Source: Escherichia coli (GTDB lineage Bacteria > Pseudomonadota > Gammaproteobacteria > Enterobacterales > Enterobacteriaceae). From it: a stretch of 64,000 nt of DNA. The first letter of the stretch is position 1. Every line of letters starts with the position of its first letter. Location: NCBI RefSeq assembly GCF_024223415.1, contig NZ_CP100500.1. The stretch is one strand, 5' to 3'. The notes under the pieces were generated by a model. That model searched no databases. It was not told where the DNA came from and saw only the letters and a list, made by a program, of their open reading frames with translations. A program made the translations under genes and the position numbers. Shown in pieces: positions 22,237 through 34,906 of this stretch.

Positions 22237-22249
22237 ATAAATGGGATAT
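22237..22249. repeat. attL core: left copy of the 13-bp direct repeat ATAAATGGGATAT (includes the native allE ATG)
   Basis: Matches ATAAAAGGGATAT at 33890-33902 in 12 of 13 positions; the allE start codon plus 2 codons are followed by foreign sequence. Confidence 0.6.
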
Positions 22250-22322: not shown

Positions 22323-22347
22323 AATTAACTACACCATTAACTACACC
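22323..22347. repeat. Tandem AATTAACTACACC / ATTAACTACACC repeats, left arm (candidate integrase arm-type sites)
   Basis: The same 25-bp tandem is present at 33743-33767 next to int; flanking ~60 bp is also similar at both ends. Confidence 0.5.
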
Positions 22348-22639
22348 GTTCGGCGCACTGTATGAAACAACGTGGAACAAATAGGCACAAGAAATATAAA
22401 GGCGGGTAATTTTAAGGGGGCGTTGCTGTCGATACGGGGATCCACATATCGAGATTGATACCTGGCTTTTTTTCCGGTTAACCTTTAATCAGGCTGGTGG
22501 GCTTTACCTGTTCTGTAGGAGTGGTCATTATGACCATTCAGCCAATGACCTTAATCAGAATTTTTCGCTAAAAAATGACGTTGGCCACGTCATCCGGAAA
22601 GCACAAAATCACGTCGATTTTTAATGGATGGTTAAACCG

Positions 22640-23661: not shown

Positions 23662-24102
23662 TTAACTTTGCTGTTCTGTAACGACTGATTGTTCCATGCT
23701 GGCACGGCGAACGCTTACGGCATGACGCCACCCAGCCAGAAAGCCAGCCATTTTATTTCGTGCCTTGCTCACATCTTCCGGTGAATAGCCGTAAATATGC
23801 AAACCTTCATCAAATCGCTGTTCTGTTTCTTCACTGAAATACTCGTCGCGCTCTGACGCAATCAACCTGGCAACCATAATCTTTTCCAGTGCGCTGGTTT
23901 CTCCGTGGTACTCAATAGCATCAAGATGGCTTTTACCCATGCACCAGAATAATGTGTGTCCGATGTGATAACCGCCGGACTTTCCGCGATCCGCATCAAG
24001 ATATGGCATGCCCTGTTTGGTCCATGCGCGAATAGTGGTTCTGTTGACCTTGAAATGTTCTGCTATTTCCTGCTGACTCACAAAACAAGCTTTATCAATC
24101 AT
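23662..24102 (-). CDS. Terminase small subunit, lambda Nu1-like (HTH DNA-packaging protein)
   Basis: 146-aa ORF; N-terminus VSQQEIAEHFKVNRTTIRAWTKQGMPYLDADRGKSGG parallels lambda Nu1 (..IRTIQNWQEQGMPVLRGGGKG..). Confidence 0.7.
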   Translation of the reverse strand: MIDKACFVSQQEIAEHFKVNRTTIRAWTKQGMPYLDADRGKSGGYHIGHTLFWCMGKSHLDAIEYHGETSALEKIMVARLIASERDEYFSEETEQRFDEGLHIYGYSPEDVSKARNKMAGFLAGWRHAVSVRRASMEQSVVTEQQS

Positions 24103-25037: not shown

Positions 25038-26093
25038 TTAAGCAATTTTGACGGTAACAAATTTGCGAATATCTGCCGGTACCGGCTGCGGTGCGCTGTG
25101 CGTCTGCACGTACTCAATCGCCGGATCGCCGTCCTCAATCCAGTTTTTCGGGTAGTACATGTTTTGCGTTGCGCCCGTTCTTACCGCTTCCTGATCCATA
25201 ATCGCACCATATGCCACCAGCCCTTTATTGTTGGTGTTACCCAGGACCAGCAAATCAGGCTCAAGGAAATATTTTTCGGTGCCGTCGCTGTCAGTGTATT
25301 TGCCGGAATAGACGATAAGGGCCAGATCACCAAGATAGCCTTTAAAGCTCACCACTTCGCCCAGGTTTTTACAGGCCAGCTCGGCGGCGGATTCTGACCC
25401 ACGGGAAAGATCGTACAGTTCACGGAATTTTTTAAAGCTGCGTAATGTGCGCCATACCTCACCGCCCATAATCATGACGTTGGCGGGGCAACCTGCCTGA
25501 TCAGCATAAAGCTCGATGTCATAGATTGGGTCGTGCATGTCTTTATCCTGCTGGGACCATTTTTTACCACTGGCCTGCTGTATGATGCAGTTTTCCGGTA
25601 TTTTCCAGTCGATTTCATAGCGTTCTATGCCTTCGCCCTCAATGATGTTTTTTCCGGTCGTTACCGCATTCACCGCCAGCCATTCAACACGCGCTTTAAT
25701 GGCGTTTACCTGGCGGCGCATGTTGCCAGTAATCAGGCGCATACGGCGATAGGTTGGGTCGTTAAGCTGTGCCGGATCTTCTCCAGCCATGCGCATGATG
25801 GTCTTTGTTGGATCGATTTCGTGCTTTGGCTTCATGTAGCCTGGTTTAATCGTGCTGGTTTCGTACCCTTTATCGCGCTGGACCTGACTACCCACCATAG
25901 GAGAACAGAACGCAGACATCGTAACCTCTTCAATGTCCAGGGTGTCCAGCATGATGTTTTGGGTGTTGAAGGTCGCCACGTTCGGGAAAAACAGCGTGGT
26001 AAACAGCGGACTAAATTTAAATTCCGAAATATCCCCGCGATTCAGGTACGCGAAAAGCTGGTTAGTTGTAAGTGCCGTTGCTTTGCCTGTCAT
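25038..26093 (-). CDS. Major capsid protein, lambda gpE family
   Basis: 351-aa ORF with many lambda gpE identities (PGYMKPKHE, DPTYRRMRLI, VVSFKGYLGDLALIVYSGKY, VLGNT, YPKNW..GDPA, SAP). Confidence 0.85.
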   Translation of the reverse strand: MTGKATALTTNQLFAYLNRGDISEFKFSPLFTTLFFPNVATFNTQNIMLDTLDIEEVTMSAFCSPMVGSQVQRDKGYETSTIKPGYMKPKHEIDPTKTIMRMAGEDPAQLNDPTYRRMRLITGNMRRQVNAIKARVEWLAVNAVTTGKNIIEGEGIERYEIDWKIPENCIIQQASGKKWSQQDKDMHDPIYDIELYADQAGCPANVMIMGGEVWRTLRSFKKFRELYDLSRGSESAAELACKNLGEVVSFKGYLGDLALIVYSGKYTDSDGTEKYFLEPDLLVLGNTNNKGLVAYGAIMDQEAVRTGATQNMYYPKNWIEDGDPAIEYVQTHSAPQPVPADIRKFVTVKIA

Positions 26094-26299: not shown

Positions 26300-26508
26300 A
26301 GTCAGAAATTCCTCTTTGACTTAAAAAATCATAACTGGATGTTCATCCAGTCCTGATTATAATCATGATTGCATTTTGTGCAATAATGTTGAGTTGTGTT
26401 GCAAATTATGAAATGATTATCCCGATCATGTGTGTCAGTGCACCATAAAAAACCTCGTATACAAAAGCCCGATAAGCCCCCTGTGACCTTATCGGGCTTT
26501 TTTTAGGC

Positions 26509-26532
26509 GTAAAAAAGCCGGATTGCTCCGGC
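26509..26532 (-). terminator. Rho-independent terminator after the PerC-like gene
   Basis: Minus-strand hairpin GCCGGAGCAATCCGGC followed by a T-run. Confidence 0.5.
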
Positions 26533-26539
26533 TGTGTGC

Positions 26540-26812
26540 TCACTTCTGCGGGTAGTTGCGCCATATTGCTTTGCCAATACCAGCTATCCCCATTTGTTTT
26601 TCAGTGCGATTAACTGACCTTTTCAGAGCGCCTAAATCATCCGGCGGCTCCGGTGGCCTCTGTGCCTTCCGTGAACATTCCAGCCGTCGCATTGCCACCT
26701 GTGCGCGTTCCTTGTCTGTCTCCACCAGCATCATCACTTCACCCCATCGCGCGGCCGCCCTCCGGTAAAATCCTTTCGCCTCCAGTTCCTCCGCTATCCG
26801 GTCATGTACCAT
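26540..26812 (-). CDS. PerC-family transcriptional regulator-like protein
   Basis: ORF 26540..26932; likely start MVHDRIAEELEAKGFYRRAAARWGEVMMLV, resembling PerC-family proteins; assignment from memory of the family. Confidence 0.5.
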   Translation of the reverse strand: MVHDRIAEELEAKGFYRRAAARWGEVMMLVETDKERAQVAMRRLECSRKAQRPPEPPDDLGALKRSVNRTEKQMGIAGIGKAIWRNYPQK

Positions 26813-26822
26813 CGTCACCCCC

Positions 26823-27233
26823 TCAGAACGGAATATCATCACCGTAAGGGTCATCGCCTCCCGCTGGTGGCTGATTACCCTGTGTGCCTGTGGTTTTGCG
26901 TCTGTTCCCGCCAGGACGTGCCGCACGGGCACTGATTACGCTGTCTGCGATGACCTGCCAGCCCTGCCGCGTTTCGCCGTTCTGGCCTGTCCACTGGCTT
27001 ACCTGCATGTTACCCGCCACGCTCACCAGTTCGCCTTTGTGGTGTCTGGCCAGTGCGTCGGCCTGTCTGCCAAACGCCAGGACGGATAACCACATCGTCG
27101 CCGTTCCGTCATCTGCCTGGCTGCATGGCAGGGGAACCGCCATACTCGCCATCGCCATTTGTGTCCCTTTGCTGGTCTGTTTTGTCTGCGGGTCGTCCAC
27201 CAGCCGCCCGTAAGCCGCTATCTGTGCTGTCAT
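26823..27233 (-). CDS. Single-stranded DNA-binding protein (SSB)
   Basis: 136-aa ORF with OB-fold-like N-terminus, Gly/Pro-rich linker and the canonical acidic SSB tail ...GDDIPF. Confidence 0.8.
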   Translation of the reverse strand: MTAQIAAYGRLVDDPQTKQTSKGTQMAMASMAVPLPCSQADDGTATMWLSVLAFGRQADALARHHKGELVSVAGNMQVSQWTGQNGETRQGWQVIADSVISARAARPGGNRRKTTGTQGNQPPAGGDDPYGDDIPF

Positions 27234-27487
27234 GCTGTCTGCTCTCCGGTTTTAACATTGATGGTTGTCACCTGTTCCGCTCCGGCAATCTCCCGCTCTG
27301 TCAGCGTGGCAAAGTTTGCCGCCGTCGTTGTCATGAATGCGCTTATCAGTTCGGGATGTGCTTTCGCGTATCCTTCCCCCGTGTTGCGGTCGATGATTTT
27401 TATCGCCACCCTCAGCCAGTGCTCTGTAAGGTCAATGGCGCGGTTATGTGATTTCTTCTGATTGTTAAATTTTTCTGATGTGTGCAT
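27230..27487 (-). CDS. Hypothetical protein (85 aa) upstream of ssb
   Basis: ORF overlapping the ssb start by 4 nt; no recognisable domain. Confidence 0.45.
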   Translation of the reverse strand: MHTSEKFNNQKKSHNRAIDLTEHWLRVAIKIIDRNTGEGYAKAHPELISAFMTTTAANFATLTEREIAGAEQVTTINVKTGEQTA

Positions 27488-27529: not shown

Positions 27530-27770
27530 GCACCTCCTCTACCTCTCTACACAATCATCTTTCAGGTCAGTAATGGCGCGGCTTTCAGCGGGGTAGAGGG
27601 CTTTTTTGGCCCTCTACCCGCCATCTACCACCCCCTCACAAATGCCCTGAATTATGGTAGAGGGTGTAGAGGGCTTTTAAGTACCTTCTACCTGCCATCC
27701 ACCCAATCTATCCACATGAAATATATGTAATTATTTTCTTAAGGTAGAAGGGGTAGAGGGCTTTTGTCTA
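27530..27770. repeat. Iteron array; candidate replication origin of the island
   Basis: At least six copies or variants of GGTAGAGGG(C)TTTT and its complement CCCTCTACC in about 240 bp of non-coding DNA directly 3' of the primase gene. Confidence 0.6.
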
Positions 27771-27773
27771 AAA

Positions 27774-29522
27774 CTATAAAAACGCGTCGCAGTCGTCTGT
27801 TGTTGTCACGTTGGTTTGCGTAAACCCTTTAATCCTGCGCGTTATATATTCATGACCGTAAACTTTCGCCGCTGGCTTCATGGCCTTGCTGAACTCAGCC
27901 ACGTTCAGCGGTTTGCTCCTGCCTGCATACGCCATAAACGCCAGATAGACGCGGTAAAGGCTGTTTCTGGTCGTGTACTTCACTGAATCGCCACCGCCGC
28001 CCATCATCAGGCCACGTGCTTCCTCCAGAAAATTCAGGAACTGGCAAAACTCAATAACCGGATCCGTCTGTTGCTTTATTGCCAGAGCTTCATCACCGTC
28101 TCGCTGTTCAATGAGTAAAGCCCGTGCCTTTTCAGGGTCGGCAAAGTTCGCCAGCAAGCGGCGGATAATGACAGGGATTTCAGCCGCGATCTTTTCCGGT
28201 AGCTCCCTGTCTTTTTCTGCCTCGCTTACGATGTTATCGAACCGGAATATCACCCGACGACGTGACACGCCTCCTGCCCGTTCGGTGAATATCATCGGGT
28301 TATTATTGGTTGCCAGCACAACCGCCCTGATTACCGCCGTGAATCGCTTTTCATATTTCGGGTTGATTTCCACGGGGTCGCCGCCCGTGATTTTCTTGAT
28401 GCCCGTTCCTTCGCCTGTATATTTCGGCTGGTCTGCCAGGACAATAAGCCTACTCCCGACAACCTGCGCACGCCCACCAGCATCATCAAGCGATGTCATC
28501 TCAGCGCTTACCGTGTTCTGTTTCCCTGCCAGAAGGCTGGCTATGTGTGTGAATGTACTTTTACCGCTCCCGCCGTCTCCGGTGGCCTCAATAAACATCT
28601 GCCAGTCGTACCGGTTCGCCATAATCATGTACAGCGCGGCACATATACGCATCATCTTGCGCGGGTCTTTTCCGGCAGCGTGATCAAGCCATTTATGAAA
28701 GTTTGGCGCGTTGTCGCGGATATTCTCACCTGGTACTGGCGGCGTGTACTCAATGCCGTTGTGTGTGGTGATCCAGTTCTCCGGCGTGTGCGGGGAAAAT
28801 TCCCCCGTTTTCAGGTCAAGCGCACCATTGGCGAACGGCAGCAAATCGCCGGACGGCTCGCCCATTGGTTCGGCAATAACTTTTAACGCTTCCACGGCGT
28901 TACTGATTACGCGCTTGCTGAAAGTGGCCCTGTGCTCTGAATAGATCGCCACCATTTCGCGGCTCAGTTCCATTGTGCTGACCGGACACCATACCCCGCC
29001 GCGCCATACGTGAACGATTTCACTTTCCAGATGCACACAAACGCCATCAAATCGACCAGCAAGCATCTGTGCGCGCTCACTGTCTGCCATTTGTGCCAGT
29101 TGCGTATTTTTCTGCTCCGGCATGGTAAGCCCTGCGGCAATATTTTCACGCTCAGCATTCAGATAGCGCCGCCAGTTTTCACACTTCTGACCGTGCATTC
29201 CTTCAGAGTAAAAATTCGCATCCTGAATATCTGCCGCCGCCAGCTTCTGACCAATCTTTTTGGTCTCCACTAAATCCAGTTCTCCGGCCTGGTACAGCCT
29301 TACGCGTTTTTTTCCATCCGGAACAATTTTCAGCGCATCAAGTTCAGCAAGCTGATTTGGCCCAAGCCACACAGGCGGCACATTATCGCCGGATGCGGGA
29401 CCGTCCTTCTCCTGCCACTGTTGTGCATGCGACCAGGCATCACTACCCGCAAAGATAATTACCTCTGTGTCTTTGTGTTTTATTCCGCGTGGCTGTTTTT
29501 TTACGTTCGGTGCCAGTTTCAT
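27774..29522 (-). CDS. Phage/plasmid primase-helicase (P4 alpha family; D5_N plus P-loop NTPase)
   Basis: 582-aa ORF; Walker A GDGGSGKST; architecture and size typical of satellite or PICI Pri-Rep proteins. Confidence 0.85.
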   Translation of the reverse strand: MKLAPNVKKQPRGIKHKDTEVIIFAGSDAWSHAQQWQEKDGPASGDNVPPVWLGPNQLAELDALKIVPDGKKRVRLYQAGELDLVETKKIGQKLAAADIQDANFYSEGMHGQKCENWRRYLNAERENIAAGLTMPEQKNTQLAQMADSERAQMLAGRFDGVCVHLESEIVHVWRGGVWCPVSTMELSREMVAIYSEHRATFSKRVISNAVEALKVIAEPMGEPSGDLLPFANGALDLKTGEFSPHTPENWITTHNGIEYTPPVPGENIRDNAPNFHKWLDHAAGKDPRKMMRICAALYMIMANRYDWQMFIEATGDGGSGKSTFTHIASLLAGKQNTVSAEMTSLDDAGGRAQVVGSRLIVLADQPKYTGEGTGIKKITGGDPVEINPKYEKRFTAVIRAVVLATNNNPMIFTERAGGVSRRRVIFRFDNIVSEAEKDRELPEKIAAEIPVIIRRLLANFADPEKARALLIEQRDGDEALAIKQQTDPVIEFCQFLNFLEEARGLMMGGGGDSVKYTTRNSLYRVYLAFMAYAGRSKPLNVAEFSKAMKPAAKVYGHEYITRRIKGFTQTNVTTTDDCDAFL

Positions 29523-29818
29523 TTTTTACCCCTGAATACGTTAAGCATCTTTTTTATTTCCTGAATATTGGCGCGTGCTTTCTCCCTGCTGGTTGGTTTA
29601 CTGCGGGGCGCTGCCTGTACCAGAGAAAAATCACGCCGGAACTGATAAACAGGCATCACGCAATCATATTCGTAGCCTTCACGGCGGTAAGTGATGCGCC
29701 GTTCCTCCACGCCTTTAATCGTTACCGTGCCGCCGTACTGGTCGCGGTAAATATCGCCGTTCATAAATTCAGGCCGAGCGGGGCCGCTGGCATTAACGCC
29801 AGTATTTTTCATTCCCAT
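29519..29818 (-). CDS. Hypothetical protein (99 aa), translationally coupled to primase
   Basis: Stop overlaps the primase start by 4 nt; basic protein of unknown function. Confidence 0.5.
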   Translation of the reverse strand: MGMKNTGVNASGPARPEFMNGDIYRDQYGGTVTIKGVEERRITYRREGYEYDCVMPVYQFRRDFSLVQAAPRSKPTSREKARANIQEIKKMLNVFRGKK

Positions 29819-30431: not shown

Positions 30432-30789
30432 GGCGCACCCCCTGAATAACCTGATATCCGCAACTGGTCAGCAATTCGATAAATTCCGGCAGAGTGCCAA
30501 AACAGCAATCAGTGCGTAGCTGTTCGCAGGATACCTCAACGCCGTTTTCGTAATGGCTCACTATGCGCCCGGTAAAATGCGGATCATCATCGTGATGGCA
30601 CGTTGACGGTTTCATCAGCCGCGCGCGTTCCGCCAGTTCCAGCAATGCTTCAACGCTTCCGGCAATTGCACCATCCGGCAGGTGATAATTACTTACTACG
30701 CGTCCATTCTCTACATTGACCAGTAGCTGTCCGGTAAATTTCTCACGAAACTGAACGCGGTTAAGATCGGTAAGTGACAGGTTAATCAT
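30424..30789 (-). CDS. Hypothetical Cys/His-containing protein (about 122 aa)
   Basis: ORF track 30424..30831; ATG at 30789 overlaps the upstream gene stop (ATGATTAA); contains CHHDDDPH...C..CC, a possible metal site. Confidence 0.45.
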   Translation of the reverse strand: MINLSLTDLNRVQFREKFTGQLLVNVENGRVVSNYHLPDGAIAGSVEALLELAERARLMKPSTCHHDDDPHFTGRIVSHYENGVEVSCEQLRTDCCFGTLPEFIELLTSCGYQVIQGVRHA

Positions 30790-30979
30790 GGCACACCTCC
30801 TGACGAATACGGGCGGCGAATACAGCGACACAACCGGACGGGCAACGGTTACGCGCTTCGCGTTCTGTCCAGGCGGTCACGTGGATAATTTGAGATTCTC
30901 CGGCACTCAGTGCCAGAAAACGCCACACAAAGGCGGTTTGTGTGTGCGCAAGGCGTGGGGTATGCTGTGTTCCAGCCAT
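30782..30979 (-). CDS. Small protein resembling P4 Icd-like / Ash-family (host cell-division inhibitor-like)
   Basis: 65-aa ORF MAGTQHTPRLAHTQTAFVWRFLALSAGESQIIHVTAWTEREARNRC...; SD GAGGT 7 nt upstream; first gene of the leftward operon; family assignment tentative. Confidence 0.4.
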   Translation of the reverse strand: MAGTQHTPRLAHTQTAFVWRFLALSAGESQIIHVTAWTEREARNRCPSGCVAVFAARIRQEVCHD

Positions 30980-31069
30980 AATCGTTACCTCAATTAATGG
31001 TTTGGTTAGAAGCCCGTTGGTGTTCATAGCGCCAGCGGGCTTTGTCTTTTCATCGATTACCTCAATAAA

Positions 31070-31151
31070 GGTGTCAGCCACTATACTAGTAACAGGTGTC
31101 AGCCACGTCAATAGTGTTTTTCCATTTTCTTGTGTGTATACTGTCAGCCAC
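31070..31151. promoter_or_regulatory. Three direct repeats of (G)GTGTCAGCCAC in the divergent promoter region (candidate operators)
   Basis: Copies at about 31070-31081, 31095-31106 and 31141-31151, between the leftward icd-like operon and the rightward RHH gene; a TATACT -10-like hexamer abuts copy 3. Confidence 0.5.
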
Positions 31152-31172
31152 CTAATAACAAGGAAATCAGAT

Positions 31173-31352
31173 ATGGCAACGAAAGCAGTTAATGGAAAAT
31201 CCAAAAAACTTGAGGCACGAGTCCCCCATGCAATAGCTGACGCTTTAGAAAATTTAAAGGAAGAAGGCGAAAGCACTGGGCAATTTATCGTTTCGGCACT
31301 TGAAGGCGAGATCAAACGCCGCCAGCGCCGGAAGGCCAAAGAATCAGAATAA
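31173..31352 (+). CDS. Small RHH/Arc-like DNA-binding protein; candidate island repressor
   Basis: 59-aa ORF MATKAVNGKSKKLEARVPHAIADALENLKEEGESTGQFIVSALEGEIKRRQ...; SD AAGGA; transcribed divergently from the replication operon. Confidence 0.55.
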   Translation: MATKAVNGKSKKLEARVPHAIADALENLKEEGESTGQFIVSALEGEIKRRQRRKAKESE

Positions 31353-31400
31353 TCACTATCAGCGCCGTGGTGTGAGGTACTGCGGCGCATTGTTTTAAAG

Positions 31401-31601
31401 GTGATAATTATGAATAACCAAGAACTACAAAATAAAGCATTATCAATTATCATGCGCCAGCGTGAGAAAACCCGCAGGGAAATAAATAAGGCATTAACCC
31501 GCACTGAAAATCTTAAAGTTCCTGATAAGTTCGCCCTTGATCCTTTTGTCGAGAAATACCCTCGGCGCTTAAAAGCAAACAAAAACCGCCCACCTGGCTG
31601 A
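31401..31601 (+). CDS. Hypothetical protein (66 aa) downstream of the RHH gene
   Basis: Short ORF on the same strand as the RHH gene, before a plus-strand terminator. Confidence 0.3.
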   Translation: MIIMNNQELQNKALSIIMRQREKTRREINKALTRTENLKVPDKFALDPFVEKYPRRLKANKNRPPG

Positions 31602-31758
31602 CAATCCACCAGCAAGCCAGGACACTGATCACATTGGCCACCGTGACAGGTGGCCTTTTCTTTGCCCGTTATCCGGCAATTGTGGCGCTTCGCCACACGG
31701 TTGATATAATCCCACTGCTCATATTCATTTTTTGCGCAGTAGGTTAATTGTTCAGAAA

Positions 31759-31787
31759 GGCGGCTCCTTATCGGGGCCGCTTTTTTT
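31759..31787 (+). terminator. Rho-independent terminator ending the rightward RHH transcription unit
   Basis: Hairpin GGCGGCTCC-TTATC-GGGGCCGC followed by TTTTTTT. Confidence 0.45.
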
Positions 31788-31928
31788 ATGTCTGAAAAAC
31801 CGCGATTTTGTTGTTTTTCAGTTTCACAAGGCCGAACGAAGCCCCGCCCCTGTTCGGGCGTATATCCAGTCTTCATGGTTAAATCTCTGTATTAGTGGAT
31901 GGGTGGCGGCTGTGTGCCGCCAGTCTTT

Positions 31929-32117
31929 TTAGTGAACTGCCTCGCAGCTTTCCTTCCATGCCAGAACTTCGGATAAAGACCAGCCAACGGAACGACCGCC
32001 CAGCTTACGCCGTGATGGGAATTGTCCGGCCTTTTCCAGGCGGTAGCGGCATGAGCGGCTAAGCCCTGTTAGCTTTTCGCATTCTTTTTCACGTATAAAC
32101 CGATCAGTGCTTAACAC
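31929..32117 (-). CDS. alpA: AlpA-family phage regulatory protein (excisionase/activator-like)
   Basis: 62-aa ORF ...KLTGLSRSCRYRLEKAGQFPSRRKLGGRSVGWSLSEVLAWKES, the AlpA HTH signature; adjacent to int. Confidence 0.8.
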   Translation of the reverse strand: MLSTDRFIREKECEKLTGLSRSCRYRLEKAGQFPSRRKLGGRSVGWSLSEVLAWKESCEAVH

Positions 32118-32409
32118 TATTGCCCCCTTTCGTTTCTTAAAGAGTTATTTCGTGTTCTATTGCGTTGGTATGTGTCTGATTGTGTCAGGGTGATTCAGAG
32201 TTGGCAAATGTTGGTGGCGGGTATTTTACAGAAACGGGGTTATTTTAATAAAAAACATTTTAATTCAGTATTATGCAAAGGCATAAAATCTCGTTTTATG
32301 CCTTTTTTCTCACTATTTAAAGCGTTATTCGCTAATGTATAAAAAACCAGTTGAGCATTAAAAATCAGCAACTTATAAATCTGTATACTTTTTGGCCTCT
32401 TGTTCGTGG

Positions 32410-32443: not shown

Positions 32444-32491
32444 ATCTGTGCACTTATCCAGTATGCGCATACTGAAAAAACACGAAAAAAA

Positions 32492-33742
32492 TTATTTTCT
32501 TCTGGTTACTGGTAGCGTGGTTACGTTTTCATGTGCTCCCGCCAGTATCTCCAACCGCTCCACCCACATATCCAGCGCATTGCGTTTCGCATCCAGATAA
32601 CGGGAATGATTATAAACTCGCTGCATTCCTGGCATCTGGTGGCCTGTAAGCTGCTCCACGACGTGAGGATCCACGCCTAAATCGTTCAGCATCGTTGTAA
32701 AGGTGCGCCGGATGTCATGCAGTGACCAGTGAGGGTGTTTAAGCCTCCTGTGCGCTAATCTTCCATACTGCGATACGCTGGCCTCCTGTTTCACTTCCCC
32801 CAGCAATAAGCCCGTGTGCCTGTTCTGCTCCACCAGCTGCGTGACGAACGGCAGTATCGCTTCCGGTATGGGCCGGAATATGGCTACCTTCGTTTTGCTG
32901 TGCTCCTTCGGAACGGTCCATAGCATTTCGGTAAAATCCCACTCCCCGATCTCCGATAGCCTCAGTTCTACTGTCCTGGCTCCGAAGACAATCAGGAGGC
33001 GGATTAGTGCGACGTAGTAAGGGGAAAATATTTTTTTGTCCAGTGCCTGCAATAATTCGCCAAGTTCTTTGTTACTTAAGACACGCTGACTTATATCCGG
33101 TTTTTTCCCAACGTCAGCAACACTCATATCATCAAGAACGTTGCTGATTGCATAGCGCCGCTTCCGGCAGAACTTAAGCGCCTGTTTGCATGTCTGTAGC
33201 AGGAATCCGGCGGAAACAGGGGCTTGCTTTGCCACCCGATCAAAACAGGCCAGCCAGTGCCGTAGCTCGCATTTATCCAGCGGCATAGCACCAATCTGCT
33301 GTATTACGTGATTATTAAGTCGCCTTTTCAGGGCGATATAATCCACGCGGTTTTCCTTTACGTAATACTCAAGCCAGTAGGTAAGCGCATCGCCAACCGT
33401 TACAGGCTTTAACGCTTCCTGTACGGTGTAATTCATCTCATGACGTGGATTTTTCCCCTCAGCCAGCCATGCGCGGCACTGTGCGGCTTTTTCCCTGGCT
33501 GCTTTCAGGCTCAGATCAGGATAATTTCCCAGCTTAATCCGTTCCGGTCGTGCTCCCCTTCCCGTTCCGGCCCTGTAGGTGAAATACCAGGTTAAAAGGC
33601 CGCTGGTTGAATGCCTGACGGTCAGGTTTCCACCGTCATTAAGAAAGACTGTTTTTTGGGCGGGTGTGCCGTTGATTTTCCTTAGCTGTGTATCGCTCAG
33701 TTTGTTAAGTGCTCTGCGCATAATTTTGATTCCGGTCATCAC
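32492..33742 (-). CDS. int: Tyrosine recombinase/integrase (P4-like, DUF4102 N-terminus)
   Basis: 416-aa ORF; N-terminus ...LNDGGNLTVRHSTSG...WYFTYR; C-terminal catalytic region HDIRRTFTT...VYNHSRY; lies at the island edge next to attR. Confidence 0.9.
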   Translation of the reverse strand: MMTGIKIMRRALNKLSDTQLRKINGTPAQKTVFLNDGGNLTVRHSTSGLLTWYFTYRAGTGRGARPERIKLGNYPDLSLKAAREKAAQCRAWLAEGKNPRHEMNYTVQEALKPVTVGDALTYWLEYYVKENRVDYIALKRRLNNHVIQQIGAMPLDKCELRHWLACFDRVAKQAPVSAGFLLQTCKQALKFCRKRRYAISNVLDDMSVADVGKKPDISQRVLSNKELGELLQALDKKIFSPYYVALIRLLIVFGARTVELRLSEIGEWDFTEMLWTVPKEHSKTKVAIFRPIPEAILPFVTQLVEQNRHTGLLLGEVKQEASVSQYGRLAHRRLKHPHWSLHDIRRTFTTMLNDLGVDPHVVEQLTGHQMPGMQRVYNHSRYLDAKRNALDMWVERLEILAGAHENVTTLPVTRRK

Positions 33743-33767
33743 AATTAACTACACCATTAACTACACC
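33743..33767. repeat. Tandem AATTAACTACACC / ATTAACTACACC repeats, right arm (candidate arm-type sites)
   Basis: Identical to 22323-22347; located immediately upstream of the int start. Confidence 0.5.
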
Positions 33768-33889
33768 GATCGTTGCACAAAGGGCTACAACGTGAAACAA
33801 GCTGGAACAAGAAAAATCACAAATTTGTTTATAATCAAAAACATAATGCACAACCTGAAACATTATGAAACGGCAAAAAACACTAATTG

Positions 33890-33902
33890 ATAAAAGGGAT
33901 AT
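33890..33902. repeat. attR core: right copy of the 13-bp direct repeat (ATAAAAGGGATAT)
   Basis: 12 of 13 match to attL; a TAA stop and AAG replace the native ATG start of allE. Confidence 0.6.
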
Positions 33903-34679
33903 TTAAATAACGTCACCGGTTACCGCGATGATTTACTGGCTAACCGTGCGATTGTGAAACACGGTAATTTCGCACTGTTAACACCAGACGGTCTGGTAAA
34001 AAATATTATTCCGGGCTTTGAAAATTGTGACGCGACAATCCTCTCCACGCCAAAGCTGGGTGCCTCTTTTGTTGATTATCTGGTCACACTGCATCAAAAC
34101 GGTGGCAACCAACAGGGCTTCGGTGGCGAAGGCATTGAAACGTTCCTGTATGTGATCTCTGGAAATATCACTGCCAAAGCCGAAGGCAAAACATTTGCCT
34201 TAAGCGAAGGTGGCTATCTTTATTGCCCGCCAGGCTCCTTAATGACGTTTGTTAACGCCCAGGCCGAAGACAGCCAAATCTTTTTATATAAGCGCCGCTA
34301 TGTTCCGGTAGAAGGCCATGCACCGTGGCTGGTTTCTGGCAATGCCAGCGAACTGGAACGCATTCACTATGAAGGTATGGATGATGTGATCCTGCTGGAT
34401 TTTCTGCCCAAAGAGTTAGGTTTTGATATGAACATGCATATCCTCTCTTTTGCACCAGGTGCCAGCCATGGTTATATCGAAACACACGTTCAGGAACACG
34501 GTGCCTATATTCTTTCCGGTCAGGGGGTTTATAACCTCGACAATAACTGGATCCCGGTGAAAAAAGGCGATTACATCTTTATGGGCGCTTATTCTTTACA
34601 GGCTGGTTATGGCGTAGGGCGTGGTGAAGCGTTCAGCTATATTTACTCGAAAGATTGCAACCGCGACGTAGAGATTTAA
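33897..34679 (+). pseudogene. allE: Ureidoglycine aminohydrolase gene truncated at its start codon by island insertion
   Basis: Reading frame GYLNNVTGYRDDLLANRAIVKHGNFALL... resumes at 33897 with no ATG; an in-frame TAA lies 2 codons upstream; first in-frame start is GTG at 33954. Confidence 0.8.
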
Positions 34680-34721
34680 GTCATACCACTCGCCTGATTA
34701 TTTTTAGCTATGTTGGATTTT

Positions 34722-34748
34722 GCCACGGTTTATACCGTGGCTTTTTTT
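34722..34748 (+). terminator. Rho-independent terminator after allE
   Basis: Hairpin GCCACGG-TTTATA-CCGTGGC followed by TTTTTTT; a REP-like palindrome follows. Confidence 0.55.
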
Positions 34749-34906
34749 GTAACATTGCCTGATGCGCTTCGCTTATCAGGCCTACATGATCTCTGCAATA
34801 TATAGAATTTGCGCGATTTTCAGGAAGGATATAGTGCTCATGCAGCATCCGGCATGAGCACTGCGCTCTTATACGAAATAAATCGCATCCGCTTTAAAGG
34901 TAAGGG

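Follow-up and report, generated by a model that had tools for sequence, protein, structure and literature searches.

The ssb and perC-like genes described here belong to a compact three-gene unit of an 11.6-kb phage-inducible chromosomal island (PICI) of the EcCICFT073 type in Escherichia coli. In our view the SSB, whose tail is compatible with the host, probably assists replication without being essential, and the PerC-like protein is likely to be an accessory regulator directed at the host. All coordinates refer to the window, by which we mean the whole 64-kb stretch of DNA that was analysed. An initial annotation of this DNA had proposed an SSB with an acidic ...DDIPF tail and a PerC-family-like regulator at 26540-27233, a range that corresponds exactly to two adjacent minus-strand ORFs, and had placed them between the origin and the head operon; this is indeed their location, with the iterons (27532-27765) upstream and, downstream, the genes for the capsid (25038..26093) and for a gpD-type decoration protein. 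Profile searches, named there as the test that could overturn both assignments, scored each protein above the curated cutoffs, and the genes had been correctly named. The ssb-pchE pair has already been described in the literature, many E. coli genomes carry a RefSeq annotation for each of the two genes, and no new biology is added to the pair here.

In comparison with an empty allC-allE site, the island is bounded by GGGATAT cores at 22243-22249 and about 33896-33902, and its integration site is the start codon of allE. Its main genes and origin, together with nearby features of the chromosome, are as follows:

1537-1613, minus strand: tRNA-Arg(TCT), an ordinary chromosomal feature
23662..24102: gene for an Rpp-like wHTH protein
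25038..26093: major capsid gene of the lambda-E type
27532..27765: island replication origin, an AT-rich stretch with GGTAGAGGG iterons on both sides, at least 12 in number and in both orientations
27774..29522, minus strand: P4-type primase-helicase (D5_N, DUF5906, TIGR01613)
29519..29818, minus strand: RgdR homolog (DUF4222)
31929..32117, minus strand: AlpA (PF05930, 65 bits)
32492..33742, minus strand: integrase (PF00589 and Arm-DNA-bind_3)
33954..34679: remnant of allE
34686-34752 and 34778-34820: sRNAs STnc480 and ES036/CssrF, just past allE, ordinary chromosomal features

The integrase, AlpA, the primase-helicase and the iterons all share the minus strand, as in the Gram-negative PICI layout, and 3' of the two hairpins described below the order continues with a separate promoter region, a 68-aa ORF, the lambda-E-type capsid gene, the gpD-type decoration gene, a connector-like gene and the Rpp-like wHTH gene. 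Profile searches of the island found no tail or lysis genes, the structural set consisting of capsid, decoration and connector-like genes only. This absence, combined with an integrase, AlpA, a P4-type primase-helicase, an iteron origin, RgdR/DUF4222, an Rpp-like gene and capsid and decoration genes, makes the element a phage satellite, the nature that had already been attributed to it. By its gene content it is a typical member of the EcCICFT073 family. In EcCICFT073, the model Gram-negative PICI, the architecture and packaging module are as in the window and an iteron origin likewise follows pri; the 1.3-kb ssb-perC region is 86% identical at the DNA level, whereas the integration sites of the two islands differ. 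Helper-phage induction, replication and high-frequency transfer have been shown for EcCICFT073 (PMC6092414).

The insertion has left recognisable traces at its target. The empty allE site reads ATGGGATATTTAAATAAC, and its GGGATAT core was duplicated when the island inserted; the allC side keeps the native ATG of allE, and the remaining allE frame begins only at a downstream GTG. Expression of allE is probably impaired by the integration.

The iterons occupy a 286-bp non-coding stretch immediately 3' of the primase-helicase gene, with the AT-rich part at about 27705-27740, which is the same layout as that of the PICI origins in PMC6092414. The three-gene unit follows directly downstream and is closed by two tandem terminators:

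27230..27487, minus strand: first cistron, encoding an 85-aa protein (phrog_1231), its TGA overlapping the ssb ATG
26823..27233, minus strand: ssb, 136 aa; an OB fold is followed by a short linker (about 20 aa), and the protein ends in DDPYGDDIPF
26540..26812, minus strand: perC/pchE-like gene, 90 aa (PF06069), with the SD GGGGGTGA before its ATG
26516..26533, minus strand: terminator 1 (intrinsic), with AGCCGGAgcaaTCCGGCT and a U-run, 6 nt past the perC stop
26463..26501, minus strand: second hairpin and U-run, GCCCGATAAG...CTTATCGGGC TTTTG

The genes are tightly packed: the stop codon of the 85-aa gene and the start codon of ssb share an ATGA, and the 10-nt spacer between the ssb stop and perC holds the SD. 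Each of the three genes is single-copy within the 64-kb window. Terminator 1 is kept in all five aligned PICIs, the capsid-forming one included, and the RNA of 26458-26545 on the minus strand folds at -38.1 kcal/mol (z = -5.9), a value equalled by none of 200 shuffled sequences. With an A-run on its opposite side, the second hairpin is possibly a bidirectional terminator. Rfam and tRNA scans of the ssb-perC region gave no match. The 85-aa protein matched nothing in Pfam or NCBIfam and, in PHROGs, only the function-unknown family phrog_1231; its AF2 model, of low confidence (pLDDT 64), is a helical hairpin.

The SSB assignment is straightforward. In Pfam the protein matches PF00436 over 4-101 of the 104 profile positions, with 57.4 bits against a cutoff of 26 (E 1.7e-15), and in NCBIfam TIGR00621 at 57.6 bits (cutoff 53.95); it matches 24 SSB chains in the PDB, and its tail ends in ...GDDIPF. 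Its divergence from E. coli SSB is large, 28.6 bits to PDB 1eqq, with which our EcSSB reference sequence was confirmed to be identical. An OB fold and an acidic tail ending in DDIPF are common to the two proteins, and three of the four stacking aromatics are kept, W48, F54 and W81 of the island SSB aligning with W54, F60 and W88 of EcSSB; the position of EcSSB W40 falls in a gapped, unalignable loop and reads Cys. At EcSSB His55, a tetramer-interface residue and the position affected in ssb-1, the island protein has Leu, and its linker is shorter, about 20 aa as against about 56 aa in EcSSB. Among the homologs, linker length and sequence vary across 120 cluster representatives of 129 to 149 aa, 67 of them having the same 136 aa as the window protein; about 108 of the 120 end in [D/G/N/E][I/V]PF. 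The E. coli SSB tip binds the chi subunit, PriA, RecQ, ExoI and others, and the F-plasmid and P1 Ssb proteins can substitute for the chromosomal SSB of E. coli. Taken together, these features predict a conventional OB-fold SSB.

What such a protein would do for the island is suggested by its position and its family membership. A helper phage would induce the island and the primase-helicase would drive runaway replication, during which the island SSB may supplement the host SSB pool and coat the ssDNA arising at the island origin, its ...DDIPF tip presumably docking host replisome and repair proteins. The SSB would thereby aid replication, and firing of the origin would not need it. As pri-rep-ori alone replicates a plasmid (PMC6092414), the contribution of the SSB should be auxiliary and not essential for origin function; the original suggestion of a replication role is reasonable to this extent. 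A 2023 survey of PICIs lists 'Primase, SSB and DUF5906' genes under Replication (PMC10111431), and the searchable literature contained no experiment on a PICI SSB.

The same annotation had also raised titration. Under that explanation the SSB would be a weapon of interference, its tail sequestering SSB partners or the protein coating helper ssDNA, so that the helper is slowed and the island favoured. The conserved host motif DDIPF at the end of the tail would suit such a role, and so would its being a satellite-specific protein: nothing close to the SSB occurs in 50,697 phage records, where the lineage is missing from coliphages, the best match is 31% identical, and the top-listed phage matches are mostly SSBs of Gram-positive phages at about 30% identity. 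When the post-origin genes of EcCICFT073 were expressed singly from pBAD, however, only c1503 (rpp) cut plaquing of lambda and phi80 (PMC6739421), which goes against a strong titration or interference factor, and the basal co-expression of the ortholog with pchE in uninduced lysogens implies a protein that is tolerated by the host. We regard titration as quite improbable and continue to favour the auxiliary replication role.

For the second gene, the start codon required correction. The ORF as listed extends over 26540..26932 and has a GTG start and 130 aa, but the PF06069 match begins at residue 41. This residue corresponds to an ATG at position 26812 with GGGGGTGA in front of it, and the real gene is therefore 26540..26812; the RefSeq annotation in the closest relatives agrees with the 90-aa start. 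The resulting protein matches Pfam PF06069 over nearly its whole length (profile 1-89 of 90) at 132.7 bits (range 131-133; cutoff 22.6; E about 1e-38). All near-invariant residues of a 59-sequence family alignment are kept, namely L10, E11, G14, R17, R18, A19, R22, W23 and C46. The family, named for the activation of LEE1/ler, is small, with 107 representatives at 50% identity (E <=0.001) in a search of 1.84 billion proteins. PerC of the EPEC plasmid and PchA/B/C of EHEC (group 1) belong to the same Pfam family and share with the window protein the N-terminal signature AExLExxG(F/L)YRRAAxRWxEVM...C. One plasmid-borne PerC, in an F-type plasmid context, is 36% identical to the window protein; from its sequence and its plasmid context we take it to be a putative EPEC-type protein. 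Among the 50,697 phage records PerC had just two weak matches, and since neither it nor the SSB has close relatives there, the two genes were not borrowed from known coliphages. The AF2 model of the PerC-like protein (pLDDT 87) has five helices and no HTH; a fold search of the PDB with this model returned nothing better than E = 2.2, generic helical hairpins only, and a PDB sequence search gave no match.

In Sp7/OI-51/CP-933C, the prophage-like element of E. coli O157:H7 Sakai that is the capsid-forming PICI EcCIEDL933, the genes ECs1586-ECs1587(SSB)-pchE stand in the same order downstream of a primase and an origin. ECs1586 is the counterpart of our 85-aa gene at the same position, the SSB is 85% identical to ECs1587 (both 136 aa), and the PerC-like protein is 78% identical over 89 aa to PchE (ECs1588; both 90 aa) within an identical flanking gene order. 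The elements differ in their packaging genes, the Sakai one having a full set of HK97-type head and terminase genes and ours lambda-E/D-type capsid genes and an Rpp-like gene, and also in their location, between roxA and phoQ in Sakai and in allE here. Judged by its identity to PchE, the PerC-like protein is a member of the PchE subgroup (group 3). The differences from PchE are mostly in the C-terminal third, and with 22% of positions differing, PchE phenotypes may not transfer fully to the window protein. The origin-proximal sequences of the two elements are not homologous, and the transcription start published for Sakai was for this reason rejected as not transferable to the window.

The ssDNA-binding gene and pchE were described as a pair by Flockhart et al. 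in 2012, the former being marked as conserved in CFT073 and ED1a (PMC3378721), and Fillol-Salom et al. (2018) recognised the elements as PICIs, some of which encode PerC variants (PMC6092414). For the Sakai-type ortholog, RACE (2020) and RNA-seq found one polycistronic ECs1586-ECs1587-pchE mRNA, which was present without induction and about 3-7-fold lower with an SOS-inducing antibiotic (PMC7369912, PMC6265319). In the studies of Andreozzi and Uhlich, the 'group 3' PerC homolog pchE had little effect on LEE, lowered csgD/curli and biofilm and raised flagellar expression (PMC6265319, PMC7369912). Pick et al. (2025) found that another PICI PerC-like protein silences LEE1, the CFT073 and EDL933 homologs having no effect on LEE1 fusions (PMC11773190). 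By analogy, the window protein would be a small, all-helical regulator of the PchE type, co-transcribed with ssb and produced also basally from the quiescent island, that acts on host genes; in an O157 background, csgD/curli would go down and flagella up, with LEE1 little affected. It would accordingly rank as an accessory regulator of the lysogenic-conversion type and not as a core satellite function. The host crosstalk anticipated in the initial annotation is supported in so far as the PchE subgroup controls csgD/curli and flagella, but the activation of LEE that it implied is not what the same studies report for this subgroup (PMC6265319, PMC7369912).

An alternative target of the PerC-like protein would be the island itself. 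As the last gene before the tandem terminators, perC could encode an early-to-late switch that activates the capsid and packaging promoter downstream in the manner of Ogr/Delta or Q. The capsid operon has a promoter of its own, at 26355-26400 on the minus strand, in which a perfect -10 TATAAT is combined with a weak -35, TTGCAC, overlapping the inverted repeat ATTGCA-N5-TGCAAT, and several of the PHROG families matched by PerC carry the label 'transcriptional activator'. Against this, near-identical PerC alleles precede unrelated packaging modules (dN 0.005 between CFT073 and the capsid-forming PICI of 2012C-4502), the promoter regions of CFT073-type and capsid-forming packaging modules have no similarity, and EcCIMP1 has a PerC-family gene and no structural genes at all (PMC11773190). 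The pchE ortholog, moreover, is expressed uninduced and has host targets (PMC6265319, PMC7369912), and the AF2 model of PerC shows neither a DNA-binding fold nor a PDB match. We rejected the late-operon activator as our main explanation on account of the near-identical alleles before unrelated promoters and of EcCIMP1, and consider it unlikely; a regulator directed at the host fits these observations better. The repeat at the capsid promoter is perfect, a third TTGCA motif lies upstream of it, and it is a possible candidate for an operator or activator site.

The trio is widespread and recurs in different contexts. Of 5,426 complete E. coli genomes, 1715, or about a third, match the 1.3-kb stretch, with at most six copies per genome, and the best match is 92.7% identical. 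The three genes stand beside the primase-helicase in the window, CFT073, PKF11, Sakai and 2012C-4502, beside a RepA helicase in AR_0085 and beside an AAA ATPase in STEC1024, and the packaging genes downstream of them are of two unrelated kinds, lambda-E/D with Rpp and the HK97 kind of capsid-forming PICIs. Being kept across three replicase types and two packaging modules, the trio behaves as a conserved cassette of its own that is attached to the origin region. Within it, the alleles vary: the PerC of EcCICFT073 is 82 aa long, has a different C-terminal third and is 74% identical to the window protein.

Pairwise dN/dS among five islands ranged over 0.06-0.26 in ssb, 0.15-0.47 in perC and 0.28-0.54 in the 85-aa gene; on these ratios, the trio is under purifying selection. 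The values bear on the idea that ssb and the perC-like gene are in decay and no longer serve a function, an idea for which one could invoke the long-standing annotation of OI-51-like elements as cryptic or degraded prophages (PMC3378721). The ORFs are, however, intact at their canonical length with dN/dS well below 1, islands of the EcCICFT073 type are inducible and transferable (PMC6092414), and PchE phenotypes have been demonstrated (PMC6265319, PMC7369912). Selection and expression data effectively refute decay, which we regard as extremely improbable.

One observation speaks against the replication role of the SSB: basal transcription of the O157 operon falls under SOS-inducing treatment, unlike what one would expect of a purely induction-linked replication gene. 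A further alternative gives the SSB a role in the lysogenic state that is unrelated to island replication, for example by damping RecA/SOS activation or by serving SSB-sensing defence systems as decoy or trigger. Its ortholog is co-transcribed with a host-directed regulator from a promoter active without induction (PMC7369912), and according to a preprint phage SSB-like proteins can control defence systems (bioRxiv 10.64898/2026.04.29.721553). PADLOC defence models matched none of the trio or the neighbouring small ORFs, however, no defence genes are adjacent, and the position adjoining the origin and the published Replication class (PMC10111431) point to replication. We hold a lysogen-state role of the SSB to be very unlikely. 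About as improbable, by our estimate, as the titration discussed above is the wider proposal that the whole trio is a constitutive lysogenic-conversion operon whose SSB would modulate host ssDNA sensing (SOS or SSB-triggered defence), with the island tuning helper induction or tolerance.

If that proposal were true, a LexA-box-like palindrome at 26333-26352 (CTGGATGAACATCCAG / GACTGGATGAACATCCAGTT on the coding strand) would tie the packaging genes to SOS, as in staphylococcal SaPI operon I. The site scores 18.6 bits with an approximate matrix derived from some 30 E. coli SOS boxes; no other LexA site in the 64 kb scores as high, 20 shuffles yielded nothing to equal it, and it directly follows the TATAAT of the capsid-operon promoter. 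In the CFT073, PKF11 and AR_0085 islands the corresponding site is top-scoring too (18.6-21.6 bits); the capsid-forming island, which has a different promoter, lacks it. From the motif and its placement, we predict that the capsid operon may be under LexA control, in parallel to SaPI operon I; the searchable E. coli PICI papers mention LexA only when citing that operon. The region from int to alpA holds a further two LexA-like sites, at 32333-32352 and 32444-32463, and three of the four related loci scanned have similar ones at the same position.

Several smaller observations concern the remainder of the island and its relatives. The RgdR homolog (29519..29818, minus strand) is 85% identical to Sakai ECs1581 and reads NGD where the EHEC protein has its RGD motif; an R20C variant of RgdR gave no activation of type III secretion (Flockhart 2012, PMC3378721), and with NGD in place of RGD the window allele may be inactive in this respect. 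A 364-aa ORF at 30782..31876 on the minus strand has an odd composition and overlaps short plus-strand ORFs; related islands annotate small plus-strand genes in its region, for example that of a YlcI/YnfO family protein, and the ORF is probably not a real gene. Among the sequences carrying the trio, the 171-kb 'plasmid' pSTEC1024_3 (CP061267.1) has a PICI flanked by the chromosomal genes roxA and phoPQ, and is probably a stretch of chromosome that was misassembled or misassigned. Finally, AATTAACTACACCATTAACTACACCG, 26 bp long and internally a 12-bp tandem, occurs as a perfect direct repeat at 22323-22348 and 33743-33768. The copies lie towards the two ends of the island, within the stretch bounded by the att cores, and the second abuts the start of int; these repeats may be arm-type binding sites of the integrase, for which they are candidates only.
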